From a virus, in the IMG/VR virus record IMGVR_UViG_3300037567_000704, positions 22,732 to 86,731 of that record: a stretch of DNA of 64,000 nt; one strand, given 5' to 3'. A model generated the notes under the pieces. The model had not been told where the DNA came from. It ran no database searches and was given only the letters and a program-made list of their open reading frames with translations. Positions 47,408-63,740 of this stretch are shown piece after piece. A program made the translations under genes and the position numbers. Every line of letters starts with the position of its first letter. The stretch's first letter is position 1.

Positions 47408-48892
47408 TTACGATATTAACCACGAATCCCCGTCTCCACTCCTAGGTTCGCCACTGAGCCATTCATCGAATCCCGGCATATAATCATCAAGCATAACTAC
47501 CGACCCTCTGAATTCCTTTGAGGCCCAATTTGCAAGAGCGAGACTCATCGCCAAATCATCATGAACACCAACGCTCTCTAACTTGCCGTTCTTCTGCATA
47601 CCAAAACGATTCAATTCAATTTCCAACTCGTGTGTATACTTCCTACTCTTCTCATTACCATACGGTAATTTGATTTGACCTTGCTCGAAAGCGAGCAAAA
47701 GACTCATGAAAAGAGACTCTTTCTTTGCACGAGTGGTCATGAATACTCTGATTGGCATATCTGCCCTCATTTCCCTCATCTCTTGTTCAAGCATGCGCTG
47801 GAAGTTATTACCCTCAAGTTCTATGAGTTCAGGAGAGAATCTGCTATTGAGTATCACCATCATCCTCTTCTGCGCCATTGAAGACATTCCACGCTCATGC
47901 ACAACGTGAACTATCTCTTTGAAATCCTCATTGGGTTTCTGTCGCATGACAGTCATAGCAGTGAAGTCAGCGTTCTTATCCGATGAAATTGCCGGGTCAT
48001 GCCCGATGAAATGCTGTCCGAACACACCATCTGCCTCCCCCTCTTCGTTGTAATTCGTCTCTGCTCTGTCAAGAAGAACGAGTTTGGTGTCTCTAGACGC
48101 TTCTAGTATGTCCATCGGGAACATACTAGCGACATCGTGAATCGGCTCACAGAGATACTCTCGACTGAACTGAATGGCTGGCATGCTCATTCTCCTCCGT
48201 TCTAAAGATTCCAAATCCCATCTACTGGGCCACAACGCCTCGCCTTCCGAGTTGATTGCTGGATAAGTGTCTACCACAAAGGTCTCTTTCTCCTCCAATT
48301 CTGCATACAGGTCATTGTAACTGAATGGCGTTCCTACCATCATTAGTTTACTACTGTGATGGAGAACCGGGAGAAGGACACCGTAGAACCAATCTGCTGC
48401 TCTCTGCAATTCGGTTCCCGTTGTGCCCCACAAGATATCGTCGCAAACAACAACATCAGGGTGGAATCCACGAGTGGCCCCTCCAACCGATTTAGCCATT
48501 ATTCGAGAGCCATTCGATAGTTCGAAGTATGACTTCGCCCATGGTCTGCCCTCTGGAATCAAAGGTCTCAAGATATTGTTGCCGTCTATGTTTTGCTTGA
48601 TGAAACGCATGTGCTCAAGAGTCTGTTCAAGGGAGTGAGAAAAAATCATGACATGTAATCCGGGATTAAAAGTGGCTAGCCACAAGGCATATGACATGAA
48701 GAAAACTGATTTACCATGGTCACGAGATGCCTTCACGCAGAAATACTGATGTTTGTCCAGACCTATCTTCCACTCGTCATGATGCCAGTTCATCTCGAAA
48801 CCCAGTATATCCATGAAGAAATACTCGAACGACTTCTTAGACATCTCGAAGTCCATCTGGTCAATGAATTCCTGCATGCTCTCATTAGTCAT
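47408..48892 (-). CDS. terL: Terminase large subunit
   Basis: Walker A ASRDHGKS, Walker B VVVCDD, coupling motif VGTP, RNase H-like IGHDPA..DFTA and HDDLAMSLALA. Confidence 0.95.
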   Translation of the reverse strand: MTNESMQEFIDQMDFEMSKKSFEYFFMDILGFEMNWHHDEWKIGLDKHQYFCVKASRDHGKSVFFMSYALWLATFNPGLHVMIFSHSLEQTLEHMRFIKQNIDGNNILRPLIPEGRPWAKSYFELSNGSRIMAKSVGGATRGFHPDVVVCDDILWGTTGTELQRAADWFYGVLLPVLHHSSKLMMVGTPFSYNDLYAELEEKETFVVDTYPAINSEGEALWPSRWDLESLERRRMSMPAIQFSREYLCEPIHDVASMFPMDILEASRDTKLVLLDRAETNYNEEGEADGVFGQHFIGHDPAISSDKNADFTAMTVMRQKPNEDFKEIVHVVHERGMSSMAQKRMMVILNSRFSPELIELEGNNFQRMLEQEMREMRADMPIRVFMTTRAKKESLFMSLLLAFEQGQIKLPYGNEKSRKYTHELEIELNRFGMQKNGKLESVGVHDDLAMSLALANWASKEFRGSVVMLDDYMPGFDEWLSGEPRSGDGDSWLIS

Positions 48893-49866
48893 CGTGCCGC
48901 CGCCTTCAGTAATCGGAATGCAATCTCCATAGGCTCACTCTTCGGCAATTGCACTCCGCCCGACAATATCTGCTCCAAATCCTCTTCTTCTGTTGGCAGA
49001 GGAGTTTCCTCCACCAACTGGGTATCTAAGACTGGAGTTTCAACATCAGCCATAGATTGGTCTCCCATAGATTGGTCATCCATATTCGGCATATCATAAT
49101 CCATATTATAATCTCGCACTTGCTCAGGTGCACTCGGCACATATCCACCCCCTTGGCTTGTAGCGCCAGTTGTAGTACCTGTAGTCGGAGACGATTGACT
49201 GACTGCGACTGGCGCGACTGGTGGTGGCGATATTGGTGCGCCCGAAGAAAGTGATGGGGTCGAAAGTGATGGAGATATTCTAGGAACAACGCTACCAGAA
49301 GAGGGGTTTATTGTGGTGGGGCTTCCGAATAAATCGGCGGTCTTCTTTCCAGTAGAGGGGTCATAGTGCCCCCCTCTGGTATCTGTAGCCCCTCCGGTAT
49401 TACCTAACTGAAAACCAGTAGGCACATTGAAACCTTGATTTCCCCATCTATTCCATTGACCTTGATTGGGCATACCTCCTCCTTGACCGGAAGGAGGACG
49501 AGCCGGAGCATATGCTGCTATCTGTTGTTTCCAACCACCCGGTCTGTGATATCCAATAGCCTGACCAACCCGGTCAGAAGGGTCAAGAGCATCTCCAGCC
49601 TTACCTGCTCCAGCCCCTGTCGCTGCACCATACGCCGCAGCAGAACCAGCCCCACTCACTATGTCTTGTTGATTCGCTCCGGCATCTGCAAGGCTGGTCA
49701 AGAACTGAAGAGCACCAAGACTGCCAGCAGCAAAGCCACCTAAACCAGTTTTCGGTTTTCCCATTAAATTCCCTAGCAATCCAGCGCTTAGACTTCCGCT
49801 ACCAGCGCCACTACCACCGCCACCGCCACCGCCACCGTTTGCTTTGACCAGAACCTTACCCATCAC
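48889..49866 (-). CDS. Gly/Ala-rich low-complexity protein, possible internal/ejection protein
   Basis: N-terminal VLVK then poly-Gly and hydrophobic Gly/Ala helices. C-terminal EPMEIAFRLLKA motif. Confidence 0.55.
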   Translation of the reverse strand: MMGKVLVKANGGGGGGGGSGAGSGSLSAGLLGNLMGKPKTGLGGFAAGSLGALQFLTSLADAGANQQDIVSGAGSAAAYGAATGAGAGKAGDALDPSDRVGQAIGYHRPGGWKQQIAAYAPARPPSGQGGGMPNQGQWNRWGNQGFNVPTGFQLGNTGGATDTRGGHYDPSTGKKTADLFGSPTTINPSSGSVVPRISPSLSTPSLSSGAPISPPPVAPVAVSQSSPTTGTTTGATSQGGGYVPSAPEQVRDYNMDYDMPNMDDQSMGDQSMADVETPVLDTQLVEETPLPTEEEDLEQILSGGVQLPKSEPMEIAFRLLKAAAR

Positions 49867-52040
49867 TGTCCCTCCAAAGATACCTTCACTGCTTTAACGA
49901 GAACAGGTTTTGTATTATACGCCTTCGCCACACGATTCCAATCCCCTTTGCTATGAGCGATTGCTCTAATGTCCTGCTTTTCAAGCCCCATCTTATCAGC
50001 CAAGAACGAATGACTATCTGTTGTGCCTGATGGGACTGTGGACACCCTCTTCAAGACTGCCACATCTTTCTTGGCATCTAACATCTGCAATCTCTCCATC
50101 GCTTTGATTAGCCTGTCTTCCACTGGTATCGTATCAAAACTGGCAGCCACTGGGTAATCTGGCAGAGTCTGTTGAGTAGTCTCCGACTTTTGCCTCTGGG
50201 CATTGATGAAACGCTGCGCTGCCATTTGTGGCGTGAACTCTTGCCCACTTTGCAATGCCTGAGTTTGAAGAGATGATTCATCAATAGCATGTTGAGGATT
50301 TTGTGTCTTGAAATGCTCGTATATCTGCGCTTGAGTCTCTGGGGAATAATTAGCGATGCGATTCCATATGTCAGAATCACCAGAGGGCGCTGGCGGAGCG
50401 AGTGGCGTCATCTCCTCATCAGAGTCAGGACCGGCCTGTGGTTGAGGGTGTTCCTGCCATTCTGGTATTAGTCTCTCAGCCAGATGCGGAGGTATAGGCA
50501 CTGGACCCATGTGTTGGTCCAACAGTCTGGGAAGAGTGACGTTGGAGTAGTCAGGAGCCTCTGTGGTTGCTCTTCTCGGTTGATGGCCATGAGCGTGAGA
50601 GATGGAATCAGCCACGATATTGAACAAACCGTCCTGCGCCTCTAAATCCGGGTGAGGCGGGAAGTGCTTAAGTGCGAACTCCTTCATTGATTCGGGTTCC
50701 ACATGGTGCGCTAGACCGAACAGTTTCTTTCCCATTTCATGACTGTTCCTGTCTTGAGCGCCGGGAGTCTTACCAGCAGTTATCCCCATCATGGTATTAT
50801 CGAGAGCCTTGGCTTCCTCAGGTGAGAGTTGTGAGAGCAACTGACTGTGCATCTCATCGAGGATGTGATTGGCCGCTCCCGCTTGGTCTGCATTCCCAAG
50901 CAGGAAAGCAAGAGCAGCGGGACTCTTCATCATCTGACCTGCCAATATTTTAATGCCAGTCTCATCTTGTAATGCCTGTCTCAGAGACATCTGCCCACCC
51001 TCTACATTTATTATCGGGGTGTCCAACAGTTCAGGAGGGGTTTTAGCAAGCATATTGGGAGCGAATTTAGCGAGTGCCTTTTCGTATATCACAGGACTGA
51101 ACGGCCTCCCTCCAGCCCTCTTACCCTCGAACTCCTTGAAAATCTGCTGCGCGTCAGGATGAGCGAGAATCGCTGGTAGGGCATGATACATCTCCCAACT
51201 ATGCACAGCCTCTTGGAAGGGTTGGACTTGGTTATCAGTAACACCAAGCGCATCAGCGATATGAGGAGGAAGCAAACCCTGAGGTGTGAGCGCCTCACCG
51301 AACTTACTCTTCAATCTCTTTGCTACTGGTATACCATTTTGGTCCCAACTGAGGTCTTCGCCAGATATGTAACCATGTGTGATTCCCTCTTCGTATGCCC
51401 CCTCAGGGAAGTCTATGCCGTATTTCTCTGCCAGCATTTGTTTGAGGATTGGGGCGAAACCTAGCCTGTATGACTCAGGATGATGAGCCAGTTTGAACTT
51501 GGCCTTGGACGCTTCCGGGTCAGAACTCATATTCAGTGTAGCGAAAGTGCCTCCTTTTCCGTTGTAGGGATAACTGAGAGCATCTTCTTCACTGTAAGAA
51601 GGACTGTAACCATGAGCCACTAACTTCCTCCAAGCGGCATCCTCTAGGCTGGGTATCTTCATAGCGTCGTTGGTGTGATTCTTATTGACGTGGTCAATGA
51701 CCTCTTGAATGAAATCATAAGGGTCAGGAACGCCTAACTCACCGAGTTTGTGTATCAACCCGTCAATGCCGTGCCTGTGAGTATGTCCGTATTCATCCTG
51801 CCAGACCATCTCCCCATGCTCGCCCTTCATCCACTGTCCACTTGGTGTCCGGTCTCCGAGATGAGCGTGTAGAGGCAAGTCAATCCCATAATGCAACGGG
51901 TTCTTCTCGTCGTCGTGGAATATCCCTTCGTGAGGCATCCCGATGTAGACTGGTTCACCAGTCTCCGGGTCCACTCGAAAGATTCCCTCTCCTTTTCTAA
52001 GCAACAGAGGAGAATTGAGAAGTGAAGATATCACGCTCAT
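49863..52040 (-). CDS. Hypothetical 725-aa protein (possible internal virion protein)
   Basis: Long coupled ORF. N-terminal PLLLRKG and an HTH-like C-terminus. Confidence 0.6.
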   Translation of the reverse strand: MSVISSLLNSPLLLRKGEGIFRVDPETGEPVYIGMPHEGIFHDDEKNPLHYGIDLPLHAHLGDRTPSGQWMKGEHGEMVWQDEYGHTHRHGIDGLIHKLGELGVPDPYDFIQEVIDHVNKNHTNDAMKIPSLEDAAWRKLVAHGYSPSYSEEDALSYPYNGKGGTFATLNMSSDPEASKAKFKLAHHPESYRLGFAPILKQMLAEKYGIDFPEGAYEEGITHGYISGEDLSWDQNGIPVAKRLKSKFGEALTPQGLLPPHIADALGVTDNQVQPFQEAVHSWEMYHALPAILAHPDAQQIFKEFEGKRAGGRPFSPVIYEKALAKFAPNMLAKTPPELLDTPIINVEGGQMSLRQALQDETGIKILAGQMMKSPAALAFLLGNADQAGAANHILDEMHSQLLSQLSPEEAKALDNTMMGITAGKTPGAQDRNSHEMGKKLFGLAHHVEPESMKEFALKHFPPHPDLEAQDGLFNIVADSISHAHGHQPRRATTEAPDYSNVTLPRLLDQHMGPVPIPPHLAERLIPEWQEHPQPQAGPDSDEEMTPLAPPAPSGDSDIWNRIANYSPETQAQIYEHFKTQNPQHAIDESSLQTQALQSGQEFTPQMAAQRFINAQRQKSETTQQTLPDYPVAASFDTIPVEDRLIKAMERLQMLDAKKDVAVLKRVSTVPSGTTDSHSFLADKMGLEKQDIRAIAHSKGDWNRVAKAYNTKPVLVKAVKVSLEGQ

Positions 52041-53512
52041 GCTGTTCTTCCACTCCTGCTGGTGTATATACCAACAGGGTCTGTCCCGAAATATCTGGGC
52101 TCGTTAGTAGGGTCTGATGTCCCGCCTTCGTTCCTATTGGTCTGTTTCGGCCCGTTAGCCGGATGATTGGGATGATGGGCATCTTTGCCTCCCTTGTCCC
52201 CCTTACCTTTCTTCTTGCTCTCCTTTTCCTCAAGCAGCCTCTTGACTTTATGCATCAACAATCTGATTTCCTGCTGTTCTCCCCAGTTATGCTTCTTCTG
52301 CAAATCACTTCCTGCAAAGATGTCGAAGGATGTAGCCATGCTTTGAGAAGACATGCTTCCTGAGAATGGATTAGAAGAACCGCCCATATTGAGACGAGGC
52401 CTTCCACTGATTGTAGGCGGAACTATTGGTGGAGGACGATGAGGCTTCAACTTAGGCTTCGGCATTCCCTTTGTTCCCATTGCTCCCATTGCTCCCGCTC
52501 CCGTTGCTCCCGCTCCCGTTGCTCCCAAGTTTCTCTCTGAAGGTAGCAATGATTGCAATCTACCACCGCCAGTTGCACCTGCGAAATATTTTCTTGGATT
52601 GCTCTTTGAAGGGCTGGCGGCAGTCACTCTGACGTTACCTTGCCTCTTTATCGCGTCCTGCTGTCCTAGATACTCTCGATAAGCAGCAGGGTCTTTCGAC
52701 TTAGGCTGCTTAACAGCAACTCCCCTGTGTTCCATCTCCACAGAAAGCGGGGCATTCATCATACCAGTCTTAGTGCCTCTACGAACTCCTCTCCTCTTGG
52801 CTTTGTAAGACCTCATAGTAGCACCAATACCACCCATCATTCCACCGGGAGGCTTCTTGAAAGTCCCAGTGCTTGGTCTCCATTTCTTACCTTCCTCTTT
52901 AGAACGACCTCGCTCTGTTTCTTTGGTTTCCTTGCCACGCAAGTCCAAAGGTCTCATCATCGAGATATCTGGATTATCCTCTGCTGAGAAAGACTTGAGC
53001 AACTGGAATGGTATCTCAATCAGTTCACTCATCTGAACTGGATGTCCATAGGCGAAACCCGGACCTCTCGCTTGAGTAGCAAGGCTGGTCAAAGCGCCGA
53101 GATTACCAGCAGGCCCAGTCTGGGCGTGTAATTCTCTATCTATGTCAAACTTGTCGGGCTCATTCTCCTCGTCATATTGCTCATCGGAACGCCACGGTTC
53201 ATCTTCATCATCATCTTCATCATCTGAGAGACCTGCTAACATGTCGAGCGTTATTTTGAAATGTTTACGCTCCCTCACTCTCTCATCTTGCTTATCTTGG
53301 TCATTCTGCCTCTTTTCCTTCTCAGCATCAGCATATCTTGGGTCAGACGGACTACGACCAGAATCAGGTGTTTCTGATTCATACCTGTCTTCTCCGTCAT
53401 TAGTACGGAACATAGAGGAAGATTCACTTCTCGGAGCATACATCCGAGTATCACTACCTCTTCCCATCATCCCTCCAGTCTTAATCAAGACAAAACCACG
53501 ACGAACTTTCAT
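52037..53512 (-). CDS. Disordered protein with acidic N-half and basic C-half
   Basis: D/E-rich then K/R/G-rich halves separated by ELIEIPFQLLKS. Confidence 0.6.
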   Translation of the reverse strand: MKVRRGFVLIKTGGMMGRGSDTRMYAPRSESSSMFRTNDGEDRYESETPDSGRSPSDPRYADAEKEKRQNDQDKQDERVRERKHFKITLDMLAGLSDDEDDDEDEPWRSDEQYDEENEPDKFDIDRELHAQTGPAGNLGALTSLATQARGPGFAYGHPVQMSELIEIPFQLLKSFSAEDNPDISMMRPLDLRGKETKETERGRSKEEGKKWRPSTGTFKKPPGGMMGGIGATMRSYKAKRRGVRRGTKTGMMNAPLSVEMEHRGVAVKQPKSKDPAAYREYLGQQDAIKRQGNVRVTAASPSKSNPRKYFAGATGGGRLQSLLPSERNLGATGAGATGAGAMGAMGTKGMPKPKLKPHRPPPIVPPTISGRPRLNMGGSSNPFSGSMSSQSMATSFDIFAGSDLQKKHNWGEQQEIRLLMHKVKRLLEEKESKKKGKGDKGGKDAHHPNHPANGPKQTNRNEGGTSDPTNEPRYFGTDPVGIYTSRSGRTA

Positions 53513-53940
53513 TCCATAACCTCCACTACTGGCCCCATAACCTCATAAGCAGATTCTTTGACCATTTCGGCCAGTTCTGCATAGAAGCCCTTAACAAAAG
53601 GAGGGCTTGTAAAACACTTACCCATACTCTTACACTCTTCCTCGAAATGAGGTAGAAGTGACTTGAGTTTCTCACGAACGGGAATCACTACAGCAGGCTC
53701 ATCTTCCTCGGTCAATGTCTTCAGAGCCTCCATTATCTCTATGAGATAATTACCATATTCCATGTTACCATGGGATTCTTCATTGATGTAATATTTGAAA
53801 CGCTGATAGATTAGAGAGACATAATCCAGAAAAGTAGGAAGTTGTTTGGGTGTTATCTTTGACTGCTGTTTCAAGAGGCGATATCCGGGATGCCCCATTT
53901 GCAGCAAATCACTGATAACTATCTGATTCAAAATACTCAC
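53509..53940 (-). CDS. Hypothetical helical protein (start re-called to GTG 53940)
   Basis: GTGA overlap with the upstream stop codon. Confidence 0.55.
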   Translation of the reverse strand: MSILNQIVISDLLQMGHPGYRLLKQQSKITPKQLPTFLDYVSLIYQRFKYYINEESHGNMEYGNYLIEIMEALKTLTEEDEPAVVIPVREKLKSLLPHFEEECKSMGKCFTSPPFVKGFYAELAEMVKESAYEVMGPVVEVME

Positions 53941-54611
53941 TCCACCTGTTCCAATAACTGACTCTTGATTCTCTTCCAACTATCAGGACTCTCCTTGGCT
54001 AATTCGACCTTGAGGATATTTATCGTCTGATTGATTTGAGTCCCTTCGGTCTCTGGACCCCACTTCTCATCCAATTTCACCAAATCCTTGATTGTCTCTC
54101 TCACCTCTTTGTGAAGAGAGACCGCATCTTTGACAAAACCGTCCTCATGGACACTACCATCCTCAAGTAACTCATTGAGTTTGTCGTTGAGTCTTTCAGC
54201 GTTGGAACGAAGGGCGTTCATCTCTTGACCAAGCGCTAGAGAGACCTCTATCGCCGCCGCCTTTCTTACAAGCGGTTGAAAATGGTGTTTCATGTGATGA
54301 TATACTGAAGATTCAGCACATTCCAATAACTCCGCTAACTCCTCGCTGGGAAGGCTTCCTTCAAAGTAAGCGGTCTCTAAATCACCGCGTTGCTCATGCG
54401 TGCAAATAAGACAAGAGGGATTCGCCGCCATGTGATAGTCCCCCATGTGATTCCTGTAATGACGGTCTGATGTGTTGGCCCTCCAACTCATCTCCTTATC
54501 TAGTTCCTTATGCGATATTTCACCACTCAATAAGGCCCCTTCCAAGGCCTCTCTCGTATCACTTTGACAAAAGGCGCAAGACCTCTTGACCACTTGCTCT
54601 CGCTCGGCCAC
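53937..54611 (-). CDS. Putative terminase small subunit with tandem Zn-finger/HTH domains
   Basis: Two repeats of CxxC...HTH...HxxxH (CAFC..HYRNH and CLIC..HMKHH), then a coiled coil and an INQTINIL tail. Upstream of terL. Confidence 0.5.
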   Translation of the reverse strand: MAEREQVVKRSCAFCQSDTREALEGALLSGEISHKELDKEMSWRANTSDRHYRNHMGDYHMAANPSCLICTHEQRGDLETAYFEGSLPSEELAELLECAESSVYHHMKHHFQPLVRKAAAIEVSLALGQEMNALRSNAERLNDKLNELLEDGSVHEDGFVKDAVSLHKEVRETIKDLVKLDEKWGPETEGTQINQTINILKVELAKESPDSWKRIKSQLLEQVE

Positions 54612-54660
54612 ACAAAGTCGGAGTTACAGATACCACATGAACGTTGTTGCATTATATGAT

Positions 54661-54924: not shown

Positions 54925-54925
54925 C

Positions 54926-55567: not shown

Positions 55568-56592
55568 TGTGCTACCTCTTGATTTGTAACTACCGTTTGT
55601 GCTGCTTGAGCCACCACTGGAGGCGGTTGTATTACCGGAGCAGGGGCGAGTGTTTGAGTCTGTTGGTTGAGAACACTATTGAATGCTGCTTGAGCAGCCG
55701 CTTGGTATTCTTCCGCTTCTCTTTGAAACATCCTCATGTCAAATTGTATCATAGTTATATCGTTCATACCACTCTCCGGATTTGGTATGTGCCAAACATT
55801 GATGCCTTTGGTTTTATTGGAATCCTTCTCTATCTCTTGAAAGAATGGTTCGTATTTCTGAACCAATTCGGGCACTGAGACTGTATCATCAGTGCCCTGA
55901 ATAGCCGCTACAGGCACTGTGACTATACTGACTCCCTGTTTTATCTTGTCTCGGAACCTACTCGGTTTCATTTCATCTTCTTTATCTTGCTCATCCTCCC
56001 ATTTGCAGAGAAGATGATAGAGATGAAGATGTTCAGGACAATAAGTTCCTCGCATTAACCTACCACTTGTGACTCCTGTTCTCGCAAGGAATGCTTCGGT
56101 CTCACCAGAAATCGGATTCTGCCAATACATCTCCCAAAGGCTTCTACCCGACTCTTCATCTGTTATTCTCGCATAGAGATTGTCGTATTCTATGAGTTTC
56201 TTACAATCACACCCATCAACAACGCAAACCGCACTATCCTTGTTGTATCTGTAATTACTCCAAGCCCATCTACGAGGGTCGAGTAGAGAACGCTTCGTGG
56301 GTCTCAACAACTTGTATGCCTGCTTGATGTCATGCTTACGAGCCTTTCTTGGGTCTGCATGACGACTCGGATAGAAATTGACTTTAGGAACCTCCAAATT
56401 CTGTTGAACTGCATAACTCTGCATATACTGTTGAGCGGTGGCTTGTTCCATTATAGCCGCTTGATTGAATTGAGGATTACCTTGTTGAGCAAGACTCATC
56501 ACAGCGGCTTCACTCAGATTACTCAACGATTGTGATGGTAAGGGCGTTCTGGTTATTGTGCGATACATATTATCTGGGATGTCCAATACCAT
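55564..56592 (-). CDS. Cys/His-containing protein of the GTPase operon (start re-called to 56592)
   Basis: GGAGGA SD before ATG 56592. CVVDGCDC and YCPEHLH are possible Zn ligands. Q/A/P-rich termini. Confidence 0.6.
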   Translation of the reverse strand: MVLDIPDNMYRTITRTPLPSQSLSNLSEAAVMSLAQQGNPQFNQAAIMEQATAQQYMQSYAVQQNLEVPKVNFYPSRHADPRKARKHDIKQAYKLLRPTKRSLLDPRRWAWSNYRYNKDSAVCVVDGCDCKKLIEYDNLYARITDEESGRSLWEMYWQNPISGETEAFLARTGVTSGRLMRGTYCPEHLHLYHLLCKWEDEQDKEDEMKPSRFRDKIKQGVSIVTVPVAAIQGTDDTVSVPELVQKYEPFFQEIEKDSNKTKGINVWHIPNPESGMNDITMIQFDMRMFQREAEEYQAAAQAAFNSVLNQQTQTLAPAPVIQPPPVVAQAAQTVVTNQEVAQ

Positions 56593-56594
56593 GT

Positions 56595-56783
56595 TTAGTC
56601 CTCCAAAGGCGCAGGCGCTACGTGAATAGTCATTTTGCCATTTTGGGCCGATAAACTCCACTCCAATTTATTCCCAGCAGTCAATCCAAATTGATGGACA
56701 ATCCACATGGGAACTGTGGTTCTCAACGAATTACTACCCCCTCCAGTGGGAACCAAAGCAGTAGTCGTCTTACCTCTTGTCAT
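56595..56783 (-). CDS. AbrB/MazE/SpoVT-family swapped-hairpin DNA-binding protein
   Basis: SNSLRTTVPMWIVHQFGLTAGNKLEW fits the AbrB consensus. Likely ATG at 56783 after GAGGGGTG. Confidence 0.75.
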   Translation of the reverse strand: MTRGKTTTALVPTGGGSNSLRTTVPMWIVHQFGLTAGNKLEWSLSAQNGKMTIHVAPAPLED

Positions 56784-56818
56784 GTATGCCCGACACCCCT
56801 CTACATCAAAAAGGTCAC

Positions 56819-57532
56819 TCAAGTGGTCAATAATTCAATCATGGTTGATTCTACGTTCCAACCTATCCTTGTGGCCATGAAAGCACGTTTTGTGGGTAGT
56901 CTCGCCTTCTGAAGACGGATTAAGTCATCTCGGAAAGGGTCGAATAACTTGTGTTCGCCTATTCTTCCCTGCTGCCATAGTTCTGCAGCATTCTTATCAA
57001 AAAACCTATCAGCCTTGTTAGCAACTAACATCAGTAATCGAGGACTGTATTTCTTACCCCTCCATCTACTTTTGAGAGTTCTGTATCTATACCGCCGCTC
57101 TATGAGACTATCCACAAGATACTTGAAACCGGCAATTTGTTCCAATCCATCACCGCCGCCCTTGAAAGCGCGGTCATCGAACATGTAAACTATCACTTCA
57201 CACTGTCTAGCAACCATATCGTCAATCCAAAGATTCCAGAACCTCTCCTGTCCCCCAATATCAGCAGAATACACAACTCTCTTCTCTCCCTCCCAAGCGA
57301 TTCTCTTTCTCGTCGGTTTGGGAAGTAAATATCTACTCAGTATTTTATAATGTTCTGTCCTCTCGTCTTCTGGTATCTCTCCCATCTCACCGGGAGTAGT
57401 CATATATCTGTCAAGTGTGGTCTTACCAACCATTGTGCCACCATAGATTCCTACCCTCCTTGGTCTCCAAGAATGATAGACATTCTTGCCATACAGGGCT
57501 ACGCCTATCAGGACGCTACCCATTCCGACCAT
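56819..57532 (-). CDS. Small Ras-superfamily (Arf/Rab-like) GTPase with hydrophobic N-terminus
   Basis: G1 GGTMVGKT, probable G2 Thr in ERT, G3 DIGGQERF, G4 ANKAD, G5-like MAT. 237 aa. Confidence 0.85.
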   Translation of the reverse strand: MVGMGSVLIGVALYGKNVYHSWRPRRVGIYGGTMVGKTTLDRYMTTPGEMGEIPEDERTEHYKILSRYLLPKPTRKRIAWEGEKRVVYSADIGGQERFWNLWIDDMVARQCEVIVYMFDDRAFKGGGDGLEQIAGFKYLVDSLIERRYRYRTLKSRWRGKKYSPRLLMLVANKADRFFDKNAAELWQQGRIGEHKLFDPFRDDLIRLQKARLPTKRAFMATRIGWNVESTMIELLTT

Positions 57533-57535
57533 GAA

Positions 57536-57805
57536 TCAGACCGCCGCATCTATTTTACTATACAACCAATCAGCCAAATCTTGCGCTTGACCATAAGCCC
57601 ATTCTACAGTCCAACCCCAAAGCGAAAATGAAGAATTGGACTCAATGGCACTCACCAAGAGAGCGGCAACTACGGTTGCGATAATGGTCCTAATCCAACC
57701 AACACCCCACTCATAGGTGTTGTCCACAGTATTGGCGAGATGCATAGCGCGAAGAGTTTCCTCAACAGAATCATCTTTCGGAGTTTTGAAGATGCGTCCC
57801 ATCAA
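57536..57805 (-). CDS. Small membrane protein
   Basis: TM segment WGVGWIRTIIATVVAALLVSAI followed by a Trp-rich amphipathic helix. Coupled to its neighbours. Confidence 0.65.
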   Translation of the reverse strand: MMGRIFKTPKDDSVEETLRAMHLANTVDNTYEWGVGWIRTIIATVVAALLVSAIESNSSFSLWGWTVEWAYGQAQDLADWLYSKIDAAV

Positions 57806-58428
57806 TTACCGCTACCATTACCCTTGTATCTTAAGTCTGGGGTTCCATCTTTCTTCAATCTCACATTGAGGCTCGAAGGAACTCTCGGTCTTGGTATTAC
57901 TGGCGCGCTTTCCAATCCAAATGGTGTTTGCTCTGTGAGAGAATCCAAACCCATGCTCAATGGCCTTGCTTCTACTAAAGGAGGTGAAGATATCGTGTCT
58001 ATTCCTAAACCTTGCATACCGATATTTGAATGGGGAGGCGTTTGTCCGGGATTTTGTTGAATCCAATGCAACTCCTTCTCTAACTGCATCTCCTGCATCC
58101 TGAGTTCCATATCTGCTCTTCTCTGGTCATAGTTGAACTGCTGTTCCCTAAAGCGATAATCCCTCTGTCGCTGCAACTCAGATACTCTCACTTTGTCTTG
58201 CATCTGCTCTTCGAAGAACATCTTGAAGAGGTAGTAAGCCAAAATTTGAACAGCCAACGCTCCCATAGCGTAAGTTATCCCATTTACGTAATGCCCAGCA
58301 CTTTCTCCTCCCGGTAACCATATCCCTGCATCATAAACACCTACAGCCGCACCGATAAGTAACGATTGCGTGAGTATCAATCCAGTCAATCTCATCTCTG
58401 ATTTATCCATGGGGTCTTGCACACTCAT
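57802..58428 (-). CDS. Membrane protein: 2 TM helices, coiled coil, basic KDGTPDLRYK tail
   Basis: LTGLILTQSLLIGAAVGVY and GITYAMGALAVQILAYYLF, then a Q/E/R coiled coil. Confidence 0.7.
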   Translation of the reverse strand: MSVQDPMDKSEMRLTGLILTQSLLIGAAVGVYDAGIWLPGGESAGHYVNGITYAMGALAVQILAYYLFKMFFEEQMQDKVRVSELQRQRDYRFREQQFNYDQRRADMELRMQEMQLEKELHWIQQNPGQTPPHSNIGMQGLGIDTISSPPLVEARPLSMGLDSLTEQTPFGLESAPVIPRPRVPSSLNVRLKKDGTPDLRYKGNGSGN

Positions 58429-58465
58429 TATTATGACCTCTAAATAGACCCCGCGAGAGGGAAGA

Positions 58466-58476
58466 TGATAAGGGTT
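58466..58476 (-). promoter_or_regulatory. Putative BRE/TATA promoter (AACCCTTATCA) of the GTPase operon
   Basis: Euryarchaeal-type CTTAT box in the 63-bp intergenic gap, about 40 nt upstream of ATG 58428. Confidence 0.4.
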
Positions 58477-58491
58477 CTGTTTTTTCTGGAC

Positions 58492-60087
58492 TCAAATAGC
58501 GTGTCTCAACGTTCCTTTATCTTTGAAATGCCGAGCCCGATTGGAATGTATGCCTTCTAACGTCAGTTTCCCACCTTCCGTATGGCTGACATCCTTACCA
58601 CCACCTGTGCCGTAGATGCCTCTTCGTCTCCTCTCTCGATTCAAGTCCTCACGGTATTTCACCCTCTTCGGGTTCGACTCATATTTCGTATCATACTCCA
58701 GTTTGTGCTGTCTCGCCTCTGGTGACACTCTCTCCTTGAGCAACCGGAGGGCTATATCCATTGGTTCGCTTCTTTGCAGGTCTTGGAACTCTTCTGAAAA
58801 CGGATGTTCTTCATTAAATAGCGTGGGTTTTGACTCCAAATCCCTCAAGTTCATCTCCTGTTCCAATTCCCACCTGTCCGGGCCTGAATTAGGATGAAAG
58901 CGCACATGAGTTTCTCCATCGTCACTCAAAGGCACGGGGGCTATCCTGCCATCTTTATCACGGACATATTCCGGCATTCTCGATAACCACTCTCTTATCT
59001 GTGAATTGTCCTTGTCGGCGTGTGGGCGATTTTCCAAAGAGGTCAAAGATGGGGCATCGTAGTTCATCCTATCCACATTATCAATGATATTTCTTATGTT
59101 GCTTGACCTCATTTGGTCGAAGTCAGAACTATCTAACGGTGCGAACCTCGCATCCTTTATCGGAATGTCTCGGTATTCCCTTGCATCTCCATAAGTTTTC
59201 TCATATCTGAAGTTCGGGTCATGAAAATTACCGAAATCCTGTGGTACTTCTTTGAGCAACTGGAAGGCTATGTCCATAGGTTCAGATGCGTTCTTTCCTT
59301 GCCAACTGTCTCCGAATTGTGGTTCTTCTGCTGTTGGATTACTCATTGCATTGTCAAATGCAGCATCACGGCTTTCAGGGTGAAGACAACCTGTGCAGAT
59401 TCCTTGTTTATCATCCATAGGAACACCTTCACTGAAATTACGAATGTCTGCAGCACAGGTTCGGCATTCTCTTGGGAACATAACACTTGGGTCATGGTCG
59501 AATTGTTCTGGCGGCATCAATATACGATTCATTATAGAGTAGTCTTTGACACCGAAGTTCTTAGGTGGAGTTTCGTCCTCTTCTTTGAGCAACTGGAAGG
59601 CTATTTCCATAGGCTCGCCCATCTCAACGAAACCAGAACCGATAGGATTTGAAGTATACTGTCCATAGGCATATTTCTGCCCTGTAGGGAACTCAGTGTA
59701 AGCCGGTGGGTTTTTTTCTGTAAAACCGCCTTCCTCTAACCTACCTACAACTTCTCCATCTGGTTTCAAAAACTCAGTCTGTCCTGTTCCACTAGGAGAG
59801 TGAAGTATCGAGTCCTGTTTATGCTCTTCAGCAAGTCCTAGTATCTCAGGAATTAGAGGTTCAGGCACGTTAGATAGAGCAATAGAATTCTCAGGCCCCC
59901 ATTCTTCACTCTGTCCACGACCTGAGATGATTTTCATTTGCAGTTTATTTTCCAATTCCCCAATCTGAGACAACAACCTATCGTGTCTCTCACTTTGCTC
60001 CTTTTGACTCATCGGATTTTCGTCATTCACCCAATTTGGTTTGGAAGATATGAGTATATTGTGGGTTTCAGGGTCAAATAACTCCAT
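58492..60087 (-). CDS. Modular polyprotein-like protein: DUF3293-like domain, Zn finger, unknown module, C-terminal HNH-like domain
   Basis: Modules are separated by three EPM[DE]IA[FL][QR]LLKE copies. Contains LAEEHKQDSIL, CRTC..CTGC and GGGKDVSH...HSNRARH. Confidence 0.6.
   Translation of the reverse strand: MELFDPETHNILISSKPNWVNDENPMSQKEQSERHDRLLSQIGELENKLQMKIISGRGQSEEWGPENSIALSNVPEPLIPEILGLAEEHKQDSILHSPSGTGQTEFLKPDGEVVGRLEEGGFTEKNPPAYTEFPTGQKYAYGQYTSNPIGSGFVEMGEPMEIAFQLLKEEDETPPKNFGVKDYSIMNRILMPPEQFDHDPSVMFPRECRTCAADIRNFSEGVPMDDKQGICTGCLHPESRDAAFDNAMSNPTAEEPQFGDSWQGKNASEPMDIAFQLLKEVPQDFGNFHDPNFRYEKTYGDAREYRDIPIKDARFAPLDSSDFDQMRSSNIRNIIDNVDRMNYDAPSLTSLENRPHADKDNSQIREWLSRMPEYVRDKDGRIAPVPLSDDGETHVRFHPNSGPDRWELEQEMNLRDLESKPTLFNEEHPFSEEFQDLQRSEPMDIALRLLKERVSPEARQHKLEYDTKYESNPKRVKYREDLNRERRRRGIYGTGGGKDVSHTEGGKLTLEGIHSNRARHFKDKGTLRHAI
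58732..59616. repeat. Three dispersed 36-bp direct repeats (58732-58767, 59248-59283, 59581-59616)
   Basis: ttctttgagcaactggaaggctat(g/t)tccatagg(t/c)tc. The last two copies differ at 2 positions; the first is more diverged. Confidence 0.9.
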
Positions 60088-60148
60088 GATGCTCTCTGGA
60101 TTATAGGCGGGAAGCGTCTGTTGCGCTTTACGAACAAGAACTTTCTTC

Positions 60149-61429
60149 TCACTCTTGAAGGGCAGGCTTACCCCTCCTCGCTATCTCACTCTGCAAAGAT
60201 TGCCTTCTCTCACCCATCTCAGGTTTGTCCATCGAGAACTGAGGCATTTCTCCCTCAATTTCCGAAAGCCCATGCCAATCTTTCGCAGGCCATCTACTAC
60301 CTATCATTTCTGGCGACAAGCGGCGAGTCTCTTCTTCACCCATATCACTCATCTCATCCTCCATCTCAGGCCTCTTCATCCTGAATGGGTCTTGCAAATT
60401 ACTGAGACCTCTTGCCGGAGACCTCTCATCAGGATTTTCACCAAGCAATTGTAGTAATGCTTGCAAACCGTTTGGGTCATCACGGTATGTTTCGTCTATC
60501 AAAGACTCACCGCCCTCTTCCTCCTCTGGTTCTAGGTCTTCTGTTGGGGGGACCTGCTGATATACGCCTCCCGGCTGAGAATCTGAGTCTTCAGGAGCCA
60601 TCTGAGCGTATTTCCTCTTATTTACGAACTTGAGTAGCGACCAAGCATGATTGAGAGGCCCATCGAAGGACCTAGCGAAGATGTTCTTAGGTTCTCTACC
60701 CGATTCAAACTCAGCAATGGTGGAAGGCCCACCTATAACAGGTCGGCCCTCATCCGGAAACGGTTTTTTCTCATATGGTCTTTTAGGAGCAGGCAGAGAC
60801 CCCACATCAGCAGGAGAAGTCTCAGGCATCGGTGGGTCCACACCGGGCGGGCGGTTTCTCATTGGATTATAATGAGAATCACGAATAGCCGCTTGATTCA
60901 AAGCCTGTAAGAGTTGCAAATCCTGCGTTTTCGGACTACCAGAGGGTTCTGTCCTCATCTGTAAGTCTTGAGTTGATTGGCTCACAGGGCCGGGTTTAAT
61001 CTCAGCCCCAAAACGGTCAAGTTGTCGAAAGTCCTGCTCTTCTTGTGGGGCTTCTGCTAGTGCTTGACCCTCTTCAGATGCATCGAACTCCTCTCGCCTT
61101 CCCTTGGCTTGCCCCACACTACTGTTCATGCTGTCAATTATCCCCTGAAGACCGGGGTGGGCGGGTGGAGCAACACTTTCTCGTGGTTTTTCACCCATTC
61201 CCGCAGTCGCTTCAGGGATTGGGGCTTTCTTCACATCTGGCTTAGAGGTGTCTTCAGGATTCTTTGGGGACTTGCCGCCCACTGAGATGACCATTACCAT
61301 GCCCTTCTTGTTGTTCTTGTCAGAATCAGATGCCTTTCCGATACAATCTCCTTTGCAATCATCAGGGCAAACGCAACCCTTCGCACCACAACCACACGGA
61401 CACTTCTTCTTGTCGGAATCAGGCATCAA
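60149..61429 (-). CDS. Disordered P/E-rich protein with N-terminal Cys cluster and internal AWSLLK motif
   Basis: CPCGCGAKGCVCPDDCKGDC and GPLNHAWSLLKF. Confidence 0.65.
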   Translation of the reverse strand: MMPDSDKKKCPCGCGAKGCVCPDDCKGDCIGKASDSDKNNKKGMVMVISVGGKSPKNPEDTSKPDVKKAPIPEATAGMGEKPRESVAPPAHPGLQGIIDSMNSSVGQAKGRREEFDASEEGQALAEAPQEEQDFRQLDRFGAEIKPGPVSQSTQDLQMRTEPSGSPKTQDLQLLQALNQAAIRDSHYNPMRNRPPGVDPPMPETSPADVGSLPAPKRPYEKKPFPDEGRPVIGGPSTIAEFESGREPKNIFARSFDGPLNHAWSLLKFVNKRKYAQMAPEDSDSQPGGVYQQVPPTEDLEPEEEEGGESLIDETYRDDPNGLQALLQLLGENPDERSPARGLSNLQDPFRMKRPEMEDEMSDMGEEETRRLSPEMIGSRWPAKDWHGLSEIEGEMPQFSMDKPEMGERRQSLQSEIARRGKPALQE

Positions 61430-61448
61430 ACTCCACCTTTACTGTATC

Positions 61449-61916
61449 TCATCGCTCAACCCGTCCACGTGCATTATCAGAAGCGCTCCATTTGGGAGAA
61501 GGAGGAATCTCCTCCTCCTCGGCTGGGTCTTCAGCGGCGCCCAGAACCCCCACAGGGGCTGAAGGCTCTACTATTCCGGGCACTTCCTCCCTTCCAGTCG
61601 AAGACGGAATGTTTTCCATGTTCGAAAGATTGAATCGAGAATCAGGATGTCTTCTATCATCGGATATTTCATCTAATCGCCCATGCAATCCTTCGAATCG
61701 TTCTATTTCTGATGGATATAGGCTATCAAGTAGATTCTCCACGACCCATTCTGGATTATTGTCTATCATATGAATTCTTTTGGCCTTTCTTTGGTCATCA
61801 GTTACCTTATCTTGACCAGTTGGGAAAAAATCACGACCAGTTTCATCCCCCTCTCCTTCTGGAAATCTCTCCCAAGGTGCTTTGAGGAAAATCCAAGCAT
61901 TTTCAAAGGGATTCAT
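61449..61916 (-). CDS. Acidic protein with N-terminal FENAWIFLKA motif
   Basis: 155 aa. The motif is shared with neighbouring genes. Confidence 0.7.
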   Translation of the reverse strand: MNPFENAWIFLKAPWERFPEGEGDETGRDFFPTGQDKVTDDQRKAKRIHMIDNNPEWVVENLLDSLYPSEIERFEGLHGRLDEISDDRRHPDSRFNLSNMENIPSSTGREEVPGIVEPSAPVGVLGAAEDPAEEEEIPPSPKWSASDNARGRVER

Positions 61917-61917
61917 A

Positions 61918-62175
61918 CTATCTATTCCTGCTTACACGGACAAGGCCGGTCTGCCTACGCATCTTCGGACGTACAGTCCCCCTATCGAGGTTCCGCTTAT
62001 ATTTCTTCTTGGTCTTATCAGTCTGAACCTTACGAGAGAGGCGTTGAACTTTGGCTCTTGCGATTTTTCTAGGGCGCTCACTGATGTATGACTTCCCTTT
62101 ACCCCCGAACTGACCTTTGAGGAAGTCAAATGCAGCATCAATCTCACTCACGGCGGGGTCCCACCAGTAAGGCAC
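61918..62175 (-). CDS. Highly basic small protein behind a DAAFDFLKG motif
   Basis: The region after the motif is K/R-rich. Confidence 0.7.
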   Translation of the reverse strand: MPYWWDPAVSEIDAAFDFLKGQFGGKGKSYISERPRKIARAKVQRLSRKVQTDKTKKKYKRNLDRGTVRPKMRRQTGLVRVSRNR

Positions 62176-62219
62176 TTAAAGCGACACCATAATTAGTTTG
62201 CGCCCTTTCCCGTTCATTT

Positions 62220-62552
62220 GTGAGCGATGGAATAGTGAAGATTCTACCCGCGCTTCCAGCAATAGGAAGTGCAATTTCTGGTGCTCTAACAGCCGCGAGA
62301 GCCTCAAAAATAGGTCAAGCATTAGGAAAAGTAGGAGCACAAGGCAAAAAACTCGCAGCAGGAGCAGCAGGAATAGGAGCGGCAGGAGTAGCAGGTGCCA
62401 AAACAGCCCAAGAAAGCCCAATGGGACAGGCTTGGGGGCACTTACAGAACGCTTCTGCAGCAAATCAAGCAGCAAATCAGCAAATGACCTCCGAAGCGAG
62501 ACAATTATCGAGAGCCGGAGCAGGCACTGGCAGCACAACGATGGGGAACTAG
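62220..62552 (+). CDS. Gly/Ala/Gln-rich small protein, only probable plus-strand gene (DNA-pilot-like composition)
   Basis: Fills the gap between minus-strand genes with a convergent stop overlap at 62549-62552. Natural-looking sequence; the opposite-strand ORF looks like its shadow. Confidence 0.65.
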   Translation: MSDGIVKILPALPAIGSAISGALTAARASKIGQALGKVGAQGKKLAAGAAGIGAAGVAGAKTAQESPMGQAWGHLQNASAANQAANQQMTSEARQLSRAGAGTGSTTMGN

Positions 62553-62755
62553 ATTCTGTTATACTGAACGAAGAGGTTTTCACCATCTTCTTGCAGTCCC
62601 GTATCATTTGAGTTCATCATTTTGATGATTGTTCCGAGGATAAAGGACTTCTCCTCCTCAGTGAAAGACAAACCGACAGGTTGAGTCTTCAAAAGTAGCC
62701 AAGCGCGATTAAAAGCCGCACTTGGAGGTGTATTTGGACTATCTCCGATGACCAT
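62549..62755 (-). CDS. Small protein with AFNRAWLLLKT motif
   Basis: 68 aa with the shared motif. Confidence 0.6.
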   Translation of the reverse strand: MVIGDSPNTPPSAAFNRAWLLLKTQPVGLSFTEEEKSFILGTIIKMMNSNDTGLQEDGENLFVQYNRI

Positions 62756-62796
62756 TCTGGAAATTACGGTGATGGTGCTTTATTAAAAGACCTTCG

Positions 62797-63264
62797 TTAC
62801 TCTTGCACAACGGGATTATTGACCATTTCTTCATCATTAATTTGTGTAGACTGCAGATAATTGGGGTCAGCGGCCAATCTCCTTTGATGTTCGTCCCAAA
62901 TGGCTTTCCCATCATCGTTTTGAAAGAGGAAATCGGGAAATGACTTGAATGCTTCCTGCCCACCGGCATCTCTCATCTGATTGTCATCGAAAAACATACT
63001 CATTTTGTTCATCATTAACCTATACCACTCATCATCGGCCATTTCTTGTAGATTTATTCGCCCCTCGTGACCAGCAATACTCCCCTGTCGATAGTCTTCA
63101 GCCTCCATTTCCCTCGCATGAGCCCAAGGGGAGGCTATTTTGTATGCATCTACCTCTTTTTCCTCAGGTATTTCCTCTTCTAGTTTGGGTTTACCCCATC
63201 TAGTGGGCATACCGGGCCTCCTACTACCCTTGAGAAAGACCCAAGCGATGTCAAAAGCACTCAC
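62797..63264 (-). CDS. Protein with N-terminal SAFDIAWVFLKG motif (start re-called to GTG 63264)
   Basis: GTG AGT GCT TTT GAC gives MSAFDIAW, parallel to MSAFDKAW of 63537..63740. Confidence 0.7.
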   Translation of the reverse strand: MSAFDIAWVFLKGSRRPGMPTRWGKPKLEEEIPEEKEVDAYKIASPWAHAREMEAEDYRQGSIAGHEGRINLQEMADDEWYRLMMNKMSMFFDDNQMRDAGGQEAFKSFPDFLFQNDDGKAIWDEHQRRLAADPNYLQSTQINDEEMVNNPVVQE

Positions 63265-63291
63265 AATAGGGACGAAAGGCCTTCGGACTAT

Positions 63292-63471
63292 CAATTTTGA
63301 GCAAAATAAACCTTTTTTGAGCGTTTTTTGTTGCTTTTTGCCATTTTTAGAGCAAAATCAGTTAAAAAACCCGATTTTAAGCCCAAAAAGGCAGTTTTTA
63401 TCATTTTTCGAGCAAAAACCCAGTTAAACGAAATTAGGTGGACCATCATGGTTGCAGCCATCCGATGGTCC
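63292..63471. other. AT-rich non-coding element: phased A/T tracts, three GAGCAAAA repeats and a hairpin
   Basis: GAGCAAAA at 63299, 63350 and 63410. A/T runs recur about every 10 bp. Inverted repeat GGACCATC...GATGGTCC at 63440-63471. Confidence 0.7.
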
Positions 63472-63536
63472 TTAAATGGGTATTTTCAAGATTTGATTCT
63501 GAACTGAGCGTGACCAAATCCTCTGTTTCATCTTAA

Positions 63537-63740
63537 TCACTCTCCGTTTGGGTAATACCCAACAAACTCATACGAACCATCCGGCAAACGGTGAATCTTA
63601 CCTCTCCCGGCGGCTTCGTCTGCTTGTGCTTCTTCAAAAGTTATATCCGCAGAATTATCTAACAGTGTTCTTTCGCCTAATTGTGGCATAGGTTCATCGC
63701 CTTGCTTTAGAATCGCCCAAGCCTTGTCAAATGCACTCAT
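63537..63740 (-). CDS. Small protein with N-terminal MSAFDKAWAILKQ motif
   Basis: 67 aa with GGTGAG SD and the shared motif. Confidence 0.7.
   Translation of the reverse strand: MSAFDKAWAILKQGDEPMPQLGERTLLDNSADITFEEAQADEAAGRGKIHRLPDGSYEFVGYYPNGE

Follow-up and report, generated by a model that had tools for sequence, protein, structure and literature searches.

A portable peptide ending in Leu-Lys on accessory proteins of a magrovirus head operon, a candidate prohead address and cleavage label

A short peptide recurs on otherwise unrelated proteins encoded beside the head genes of a virus known from a single contig of 86,731 bases, the IMG/VR virus record IMGVR_UViG_3300037567_000704 (CheckV completeness 80%), whose gene content places it with the magroviruses of archaea. 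The stretch analysed, referred to here as the window, is the 64,000 nucleotides that run from base 22732 to base 86731 of this contig, in which nearly all of the long open reading frames (ORFs) are on the minus strand. The peptide x-P/A-[MF]-[DE]-x-A-[FW]-x-[LF]-L-K (x, any residue), which is 10-11 residues long and is termed the tag, occurs eleven times in nine minus-strand proteins between 48.9 and 63.7 kb, with the core coordinates verified by translation. The tag is best explained as a portable, virus-private label on fast-changing accessory proteins of the head-assembly operon. What, then, is the label for? The answer favoured here, which we consider about evenly balanced, is that it is a combined address and cut label comparable to the capsid-targeting sequence (CTS) of phage T4, one that would be served by an HK97-type protease, use a code ending in Lys and be placed at the starts, joints and ends of protein modules.

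The tag and its carriers

Five of the copies lie at or near an N-terminus, five are internal and one is C-terminal, and all belong to the structural strand, in a region that begins just upstream of the large terminase gene (TerL) and extends to the end of the contig. The first, M-SAFDKAWAILK (63705..63737, minus strand like all those that follow; 25.7 bits in a position-specific scoring matrix), begins a protein of 67 amino acids (63537-63740). Copy 2, SAFDIAWVFLK (63229..63261; 29.3 bits), belongs to ORF 62797-63294 and would be N-terminal with the GTG at 63264 as start codon, and copy 3, AAFNRAWLLLK (62687..62719; 24.8 bits), comes 12 residues after the ATG of a 68-residue protein (62549-62755). 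Copy 4, SEIDAAFDFLK (62116..62148; 20.1 bits), is in an 85-residue protein (61918-62175), where it is N-terminal if the immediately preceding GTG is the start, and copy 5, M-NPFENAWIFLK (61881..61913; 26.3 bits), is at the N-terminus of a 155-residue protein (61449-61916). The GTG starts for copies 2 and 4 are favoured by the pattern M-S-x-h-D-x-A-[FW] (h, hydrophobic) that they would have in common.

The internal copies stand within larger proteins. GPLNHAWSLLK (60629..60661; 22.4 bits) occupies approximately residues 257-267 of a 426-residue protein (60149-61429), and a 531-residue protein (58492..60087) is divided into four modules by three tags, EPMEIAFQLLK (59584-59616), EPMDIAFQLLK (59251-59283) and EPMDIALRLLK (58735-58767). 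A weak variant with Pro for Ala, ELIEIPFQLLK (52994..53026; 15.9 bits), is internal to a 491-residue protein (52037-53512), and relatives have a full tag (AMGEPMDIAFQLLK) at this place. The C-terminal copy, EPMEIAFRLLK-AAAR-stop (48904..48936; 32.0 bits), ends a low-complexity protein of 325 residues (48889-49866) whose gene is directly upstream of, and overlaps, the start of TerL, an arrangement that is kept in relatives. There may be a twelfth copy, FATEIAWIGLK-I-stop (3830..3862; 19.3 bits), at the end of a 941-residue ORF of the tail region (3824-6649), an end that none of the 14 recovered loci reaches; two further weak matches, at 12.5 and 13.9 bits, are probably due to chance.

An initial annotation of this DNA had reported the tag on at least nine proteins, described as otherwise dissimilar, mostly disordered and often tagged at the N-terminus. 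The peptides that it quoted are all present, in minus-strand ORFs that begin where it had placed them, and the number of carriers agrees. Dissimilarity is borne out as well, as there are no BLASTP cross matches at E<=0.01 among ten carriers once the tag is masked. The N-terminal preference holds for five of the eleven copies, two of which need a GTG start, but not for the six that are internal or C-terminal. Disorder agrees with composition, in that disorder-promoting residues account for 58-71% of the carriers compared to 54-61% of the major capsid protein (MCP), portal, TerL and protease domain. From its residue pattern the tag would form the amphipathic helix that had been suggested, with a hydrophobic stripe of M/F(-3), A(0), F/W(+1), L(+3) and L(+4).

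The carriers themselves are largely without recognisable families. None of the nine in the window has a Pfam match at E<=0.01, and the only PHROG match is that of the last module of the 531-residue protein (residues 455-524) to phrog_6437, to which PHROGs assign no function; the same protein has no tblastn match among 50,697 phage records. The 426-residue carrier has a Cys-rich cluster at residues 10-30 (C-P-C-G-C-G-A-K-G-C-V-C-P-D-D-C-K-G-D-C), and several carrier modules in relatives contain CxxC pairs, one of which is a weak match to the DnaJ zinc-finger.

Conservation of the peptide in related viruses

Could so short a peptide recur by chance? The pattern [DEN]xA[FW]xxLK matches 10 times in the 45 window proteins (20,080 amino acids), whereas 1000 shuffles of the residues gave 0.044 matches on average and never more than 3. 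Among 12 DNA copies the pairwise identity at codon positions 1, 2 and 3 is 0.60, 0.70 and 0.31, respectively, which argues that selection acts on the peptide and that the copies are not a DNA repeat; the Ala, Leu and Lys of the tag are encoded by several codons.

The tag also recurs on the structural strand in related magrovirus contigs, represented by 80 IMG/VR loci that were fetched through TerL (69-99% identity, 1.39 Mb in total). Within these loci the strict form A[FW]xxLK has 63 matches on the gene strand versus 6 on the other, and 62 unique copies give the consensus x-[GS]-E-P-[MF]-[DE]-[IL]-A-[FW]-x-[LF]-L-K, with a form longer by one residue, A-W-S-x-L-L-K, also common. An 11-column matrix applied at >=12 bits to the genome and the 80 relatives finds 142 gene-strand matches and just 4 on the other strand; since the matrix was trained on these same copies, it is the strand contrast and the shuffles of the regular expression that serve as independent controls. 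At >=14 bits there are 113 matches in the 80 loci, which divide into 28 N-terminal, 13 C-terminal and 72 internal copies. The terminal Lys is a genuine feature and not an artefact of the pattern, as a search anchored on the front half alone, P[MFIL][DEN]xA[FW], in which Lys was not imposed, returns Lys at the end of 55 of 58 unique copies. The residue after this Lys is loosely specified (A, S, G, E, R, Q and others).

The proteins around the tag are modular and change quickly. In all, 113 carriers with 125 tags between them contain 187 tag-flanking modules of >=40 residues; sorted by sequence, these give 45 families, 28 of which have a single member, and 9 of the 14 modules of the window genome are such singletons. 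A phrog_6437-like module is found in relatives both as a small gene starting with the tag and at the end of various larger proteins, while a homologous module in gp045 of cyanophage S-CBS2 has no tag; tag and module thus behave as a unit in which the tag is an add-on. A scan of 37 of the 45 family representatives (the other 8 all come from the window) matched only DUF6321, DUF5872 and, weakly, a zinc-finger. The first hallmark of a T4-type CTS, one short peptide common to otherwise unrelated proteins of one virus, is therefore present.

More diverged magroviruses have their own version. In four genomes, where the MCP is 44-46% identical, a sister tag M-[ST]-W-x-x-I-L-K is carried by 10-19 proteins per genome, whose genes are all on the same strand as those of the portal and protease. 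Most of these carriers had no match, but in two genomes they include a soluble PAP2-type phosphatase with the full K-x6-R-P / P-S-G-H / S-R-x5-H-x3-D signature (L184:12147-12983, minus strand, and L191:5172-6005, plus strand), which has an N-terminal M-W-Q-x-I-L-K, an internal tag-like S-W-E-N-I-L-Q and a tail rich in Cys and Lys.

Absence from the replication module and from the host genomes searched

Within the virus the tag is confined to the structural strand. No copy is found in bases 1-22,731 of the genome, which include the replication module (1-16 kb), and PolB, the clamp-loader-like ORFs and the other ORFs of that module are all untagged. In halovirus HVTV-1 there is no match of >=12 bits in 100,000 of its 102,319 bases. 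For host genomes a degenerate DNA pattern of the tag was used, which has 4 matches in the 87-kb virus genome and recovers only a third of the viral tag copies, and the host genomes were samples. With that sensitivity it has no match in four metagenome-assembled genomes (MAGs) that were reached via thermosome homologues (three of them titled Poseidoniaceae or Poseidoniales), nor in 151 genomes sampled from the order of one Poseidoniaceae-titled MAG, which is the presumed host order. Its absence from the host-order genomes searched indicates that the tag does not copy a host motif. A search of whole records with the tag profile gave no match even in the sister-tag genomes, the method being too insensitive for a motif of 10 residues.

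Matching sites in the capsid protein and protease

The functions of the window genes were assigned from Pfam and PHROG profile searches. The prohead protease gene (36136..37548, minus strand) encodes an S78 domain (residues ~25-183) fused to a scaffold-like C-terminal part; the domain matches Pfam Peptidase_S78 (E 9.3e-10) and the PHROG head maturation protease families of the HK97 kind, and PF04586 (S78) is a family that we take to have been founded by the HK97 gp4 protease. Its gene adjoins that of the MCP (34975..36117, minus strand), for which profiles and a predicted structure indicate an HK97 fold.

The N-terminal layout of magrovirus MCPs comprises a short conserved helix (T-h-x-D-h-E-R-x-x-Y-G), a variable Gly/Ser linker and then h-[LI]-K-[ASG]. 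Alignment and model place a candidate maturation site at L32-L33-K34↓A35 (36013-36024, minus strand; the arrow denotes the putative cut), where K34 is invariant in 40/40 magrovirus MCPs and L32, L33 and A35 are present in >=90%, in a stretch that is variable around them. A profile search of 1.84 billion representatives gave 578 MCP relatives, the closest of which (P0125) could be traced only to a contig of 3.4 kb, and a diverse alignment of 143 rows was used. The K34 column of this alignment contains K in 118 rows and R in 13 (131/143 basic); within the 118 K rows a hydrophobic residue occupies P3 in 110, and Ala at P1' and Asp at P2' are each found in 80. P2 is free, and Leu at this position is largely a magrovirus trait. 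The end of the tag, L-L-K, is identical to the magrovirus form of this site.

The AlphaFold2 model built from the 143 rows is a confident HK97 fold (pLDDT 85.7) in which residues 1-31 have low confidence and consist of a short helix (9-17) followed by the Gly/Ser linker; a model from 40 close relatives had a pLDDT of 41 and was unusable. When the model is aligned with HK97 (Z 17.4, rmsd 3.7, 254 aligned), residue 49 falls on HK97 residue 119, and the mature HK97 N-terminus, S104, accordingly maps to around model residue 34/35. The HK97 capsid protein is reported to be cut at K103/S104 (PMC10275583). In the best two structural matches, from cyanophages A-1(L) and Mic1, the chain starts 13 and 10 residues, respectively, ahead of the first residue that is aligned. 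K34↓A35 may be the maturation cut of the magrovirus MCP.

A second such place is the end of the protease domain, F-R-I-L-K↓E-D (37012-37032, minus strand), which belongs to a conserved G-I-N-P-E-A-x-F-x-I-[LVI]-K that is followed by acidic residues and a variable linker. The form F-x-I-[LVI]-K↓[EQM]-[DN] appears in all the distinct rows listed of a 76-row alignment, with the exception of one mis-picked ORF (L141), and it is here that the protease-scaffold fusion would be expected to cut itself. In HVTV-1 and HCTV-1 the aligned places read [MV]-S-K↓A-D in the MCP and V-V-S-K↓A in the protease. The last three residues of the tag match both of the places where head proteins are expected to be cut, which lends indirect support to a putative cut after Leu-Lys.

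A proposed combined address and cut label

How might such a label operate? The hydrophobic face of the short helix would dock the carrier onto a component of the assembling prohead, for which the inner face or N-terminal piece of the MCP, the scaffold and the portal are candidate receptors. The S78 prohead protease would then cut after the terminal Lys of the tag, at the same h-L-K↓ site by which it would remove the 34-residue N-terminal piece of the MCP and, probably, free itself from its scaffold part. By this process N-terminal tags would be removed, proteins of several modules would be cut at their joints and the carriers would travel in the virion.

The T4 CTS, carried by IPI-III and Alt, is described as a short peptide that directs diverse proteins to the scaffolding core and that the prohead protease then cuts off, at a motif that is also used on the capsid protein, and it works on foreign proteins (PMC3012670, PMC5694885). 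The magrovirus tag is likewise a short peptide common to otherwise diverse accessory proteins, but the protease is of S78 (HK97) type rather than T4 gp21 type. The cleavage motif of T4 ends in Glu, whereas the magrovirus cut would follow Lys; the host, moreover, is an archaeon, and both loading and cutting are putative in the magrovirus. The original interpretation, of a T4-like targeting peptide that is cleaved off from proteins which could then be injected as host-takeover or anti-defence effectors, is retained in part, with loading, injection and an anti-defence role as hypothetical further steps. The tag is real, modular, virus-private and located in the head-gene operon, and the idea of cleavage gains from the invariant Lys of the MCP, in L-L-K↓A at the place of an HK97-type cut, and from the S78 protease. 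The T4 picture as such does not fit, given the five N-terminal copies of eleven, the C-terminal copy and the family of the protease.

The likeness to HK97 lies in the Pfam family of the protease, the capsid fold and a Lys at a structurally matching distance before the N-arm. HK97 loses a scaffolding domain of 103 residues, whereas the magrovirus MCP would lose about 34 and has its scaffold fused to the protease, and we know of no family of tagged cargo proteins in HK97. In the jumbo phages phiKZ, 201phi2-1 and SPN3US one prohead protease is described as cutting many head-internal proteins at a short common motif, and the propeptides are thought to target proteins into the prohead (PMC5694885). 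There, as far as that account goes, the motif is a three-residue A/S-x-E, the propeptides are long and dissimilar and the protease is of another family, whereas in magroviruses a whole peptide of 10-11 residues is shared. The DarA, Hdf and DarB proteins of phage P1 are described as accessory proteins on the inner face of the capsid that are co-ejected, and in DarA the prohead protease is described as taking off the N-terminus beside the site of MCP cleavage (PMC12810830). That description has them incorporated hierarchically via folded domains, with no mention of a shared portable peptide of the magrovirus kind.

Encapsulins offer a different comparison. Their unrelated cargo proteins have a short peptide at one terminus by which they bind to the inside of the HK97-fold shell, and this peptide is not cut; encapsulin shells are among the structural matches of the magrovirus MCP (Z ~18). 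Encapsulins lack a portal, terminase and protease, however, all three of which the magrovirus has, and their peptide consensus differs from the tag, which therefore stands apart from encapsulin peptides.

Several observations count against the proposal of a combined address and cut label. Firstly, the T4 CTS, a propeptide of 10-20 residues, is without exception N-terminal, whereas in the window 6 of the 11 copies lie inside a protein or at its C-terminus, and in the relatives the N-terminal share is 28/113. Secondly, a cut is of no obvious use at the C-terminal copy before TerL, since only four residues would be lost, and internal copies would remain on the upstream fragment. Thirdly, the Lys of the MCP opens a conserved block, K-A-D-A-P-x-L-T-T-T-G, and its conservation could be structural rather than that of a cut site; the MCP, furthermore, has A or S after this Lys, whereas any of several residues follows the Lys of the tag. 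Fourthly, the P2 residues of the MCP site and of the protease-domain end agree in magroviruses (Leu/Ile) and in the two haloviruses (Ser), but the co-variation is not strict, as it fails (Ala versus Leu) in G160, a related 69-kb virus, where the MCP reads E-I-A-K↓S-D and the protease-domain end E-V-L-K↓G-I; nor does G160 have a tag of the single pattern tried, W-x(2-3)-h-x-K. Fifthly, the copy at the end of the 941-residue tail-region ORF, if real, does not suit a head address. Finally, the tagged genes are the first of the leftward unit and lie beside the divergent replication module, which leaves room for an early role outside the virion, and titles and abstracts in the literature revealed no magrovirus virion proteome.

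A bolder version of the proposal, which we hold tentatively and think slightly less than even, is a plug-in cargo system, in which any module that gains a helix ending in Leu-Lys would enter the prohead, be cut free by the capsid protease at h-L-K↓ and be delivered with the DNA into the archaeal host. Such cargo would comprise dozens of swappable unrelated modules, including the soluble PAP2-type phosphatase of the sister genomes.

Search for a binding partner

A docking prediction of the MCP (143-row alignment) with a 32-residue tag segment (55-row alignment) scored 0.00 in two runs, without controls and with the fold of the partner itself uncertain, and weighs neither way on whether the two bind. 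The scaffold ends in a conserved motif, EMSWTEVHNL (36163-36192, minus strand), with the consensus E-M-S-W-x-E-V-H-x-L, in which W is invariant and M is present in >=90% of 35 rows. Mimicry of this C-terminus by the tag was considered and rejected: the hhalign probability is 0.2%, and a matrix of 31 scaffold motifs places the A-W tags of the window below background, with a median score of -25.5 where other Trp-centred peptides have -22.4. The sister tag has M-S-W in common with the scaffold motif, and sister M-S-W tags reach about the 91st-95th percentile in the same matrix, in a comparison biased towards N-terminal tags, for which fewer positions counted.

The scaffold motif has counterparts elsewhere. 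In G160 a separate scaffold-like protein of 131 residues and a 149-residue protein behind the portal both end in [SD]-W-x-[DE]-h-H-x-h, and HVTV-1 and HCTV-1 have K-S-W-E at the corresponding place. It is likely that the motif is a capsid-binding element, which in G160 is present in more than one protein.

Other explanations

The most durable alternative is that the tag docks onto a shared partner outside the capsid, with the helix recruiting small floppy viral proteins to a host or viral hub as host-takeover factors that have no part in the head. The tag does have the look of a short linear motif, with its length of 10-11 residues, its low-complexity surroundings, its position at either end or inside and the rapid turnover of its carriers; the C-terminal copy, too, argues for binding that does not depend on a cut, and the leftward unit begins, next to the replication module, with the tagged genes. 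Yet no protein of that module is tagged, and the host-order genomes searched lack the tag. A clamp-binding (PIP-box-like) motif, Q-x-x-h-x-x-aromatic-aromatic, was rejected, as the tag is without the conserved Gln, has only one aromatic in place of two and occurs on none of the replication enzymes. Docking outside the capsid also leaves the identity of the tag end with the L-L-K↓A of the MCP unexplained, and we regard it as unlikely, while keeping it in view.

That identity is accommodated by a second alternative, in which the tag is a processing signal only, a protease recognition element that splits arrays of modules in the manner of a polyprotein without acting as an address. Internal copies at the joints of unrelated modules are what it would predict, as exemplified by the 531-residue protein with its three tags and four modules, and one module does occur both separate and fused. 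The terminal copies are less easily reconciled with it, in that the removal of an N-terminal leader (5/11 here and 28/113 in relatives) separates nothing and a cut at the C-terminal copies, in relatives as here, would free just 2-4 residues. S78 proteases, moreover, act inside proheads, so substrates must get into the prohead interior in the first place. Processing without an address appears distinctly improbable.

A self-association or membrane-binding helix, by which the carriers would oligomerise or attach to a host membrane, could draw on the hydrophobic stripe of the tag, but known membrane-targeting helices do not resemble the tag with its acidic N-terminal half and its one Lys, and neither the match to the MCP site nor the restriction to the head operon would be explained, which makes it very improbable. 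The weakest candidate, that the peptide is a functionless by-product of recombination in which shared 5' gene ends mark a DNA cassette boundary (ribosome site, start codon and first codons), can point to the RTGAGTGCNTTTGAC that copies 1 and 2 have in common, but is disfavoured to the verge of dismissal by the low identity at third codon positions, the use of several codons for Ala, Leu and Lys, the lack of a gene start at internal or C-terminal copies and the Lys kept in 55/58 copies.

Viral setting and neighbouring genes

The head module begins with TerL (47408..48892, minus strand; Pfam and PHROG profiles), which follows immediately downstream of the tagged genes, and also contains the portal protein (44385..46199, minus strand; Pfam and PHROG profiles). 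Among 50,697 phage records the named relatives of the MCP are exclusively archaeal tailed viruses, with 31-32% identity to the Haloarcula viruses HVTV-1 and HCTV-1/5 and matches to two methanogen-associated viruses. The plus-strand replication module, divergent from the leftward unit, occupies the first 16 kb of the contig, ahead of the window, and on our reading of ORF lengths and end sequences, made without a family search, includes a family-B polymerase and a thermosome-like chaperonin. The same gene content is described for magroviruses of marine group II archaea (PMC5434244), and it is on this match that the virus is placed with them. Two contigs (L202 and L203) of a MAG titled Parvibaculum have thermosome genes 52-54% identical to the viral one, and may be magrovirus contigs binned into a bacterial MAG; the thermosome of the Poseidoniaceae MAGs has a lower identity to it, of 43%.

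Other genes of the window stand out for their size or their domains. The tail region has a single ORF of 5,598 residues (8425-25221, minus strand), which was searched against Pfam in three pieces with a sub-threshold Laminin_G_3/concanavalin-like match near the N-terminus only, and which may be a giant fibre or adhesin. Between the portal and protease is a protein of 1,897 residues (37578-43271, minus strand) with a sub-threshold match to an ATP-dependent DNA ligase adenylation domain at residues 1493-1577; HVTV-1 has large proteins with other annotation at the equivalent place. A 213-residue tail-module protein (27896-28537, minus strand) has a SAP (DNA-binding) domain (E 3.4e-9), which is preceded by a Pro/Glu-rich repeat. 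The tagged genes form two groups, and one of the untagged genes that separate them encodes a 237-residue protein (56819-57532, minus strand) that contains a P-loop-like G-G-T-M-V-G-K-T-T and has no Pfam or PHROG match.

Significance

Magroviruses are described as being among the most abundant viruses of the surface ocean, with most of their genes lacking a known function (PMC5434244). The article text of that study (Philosof et al. 2017), supplements aside, makes no mention of 'motif', and that of PMC11706807 (Prabhu et al. 2025), again apart from its supplements, uses the word only for helix-turn-helix. New here are the match of the tag end to the h-L-K↓A of the MCP together with the mapping of the HK97 cut, the protease-domain end, the control with host genomes and the conservation of a Lys that was not imposed, as well as the negative results on scaffold mimicry and P2 co-variation.

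The tag gives a common fate to about a fifth of the window genes (9/45) and to 45 module families across the relatives. It also yields concrete predictions, namely a mature MCP that begins at Ala35, a protease with the specificity h-L-K↓ and a peptide that is portable. If the combined address and cut label is correct, the internal-protein strategy of T4 would extend to archaeal viruses that employ an HK97-type protease. Should the plug-in system also prove true, the tag would represent the first known address code for protein delivery by an archaeal virus, as well as a ready-made means of packing foreign proteins into capsids of this kind.

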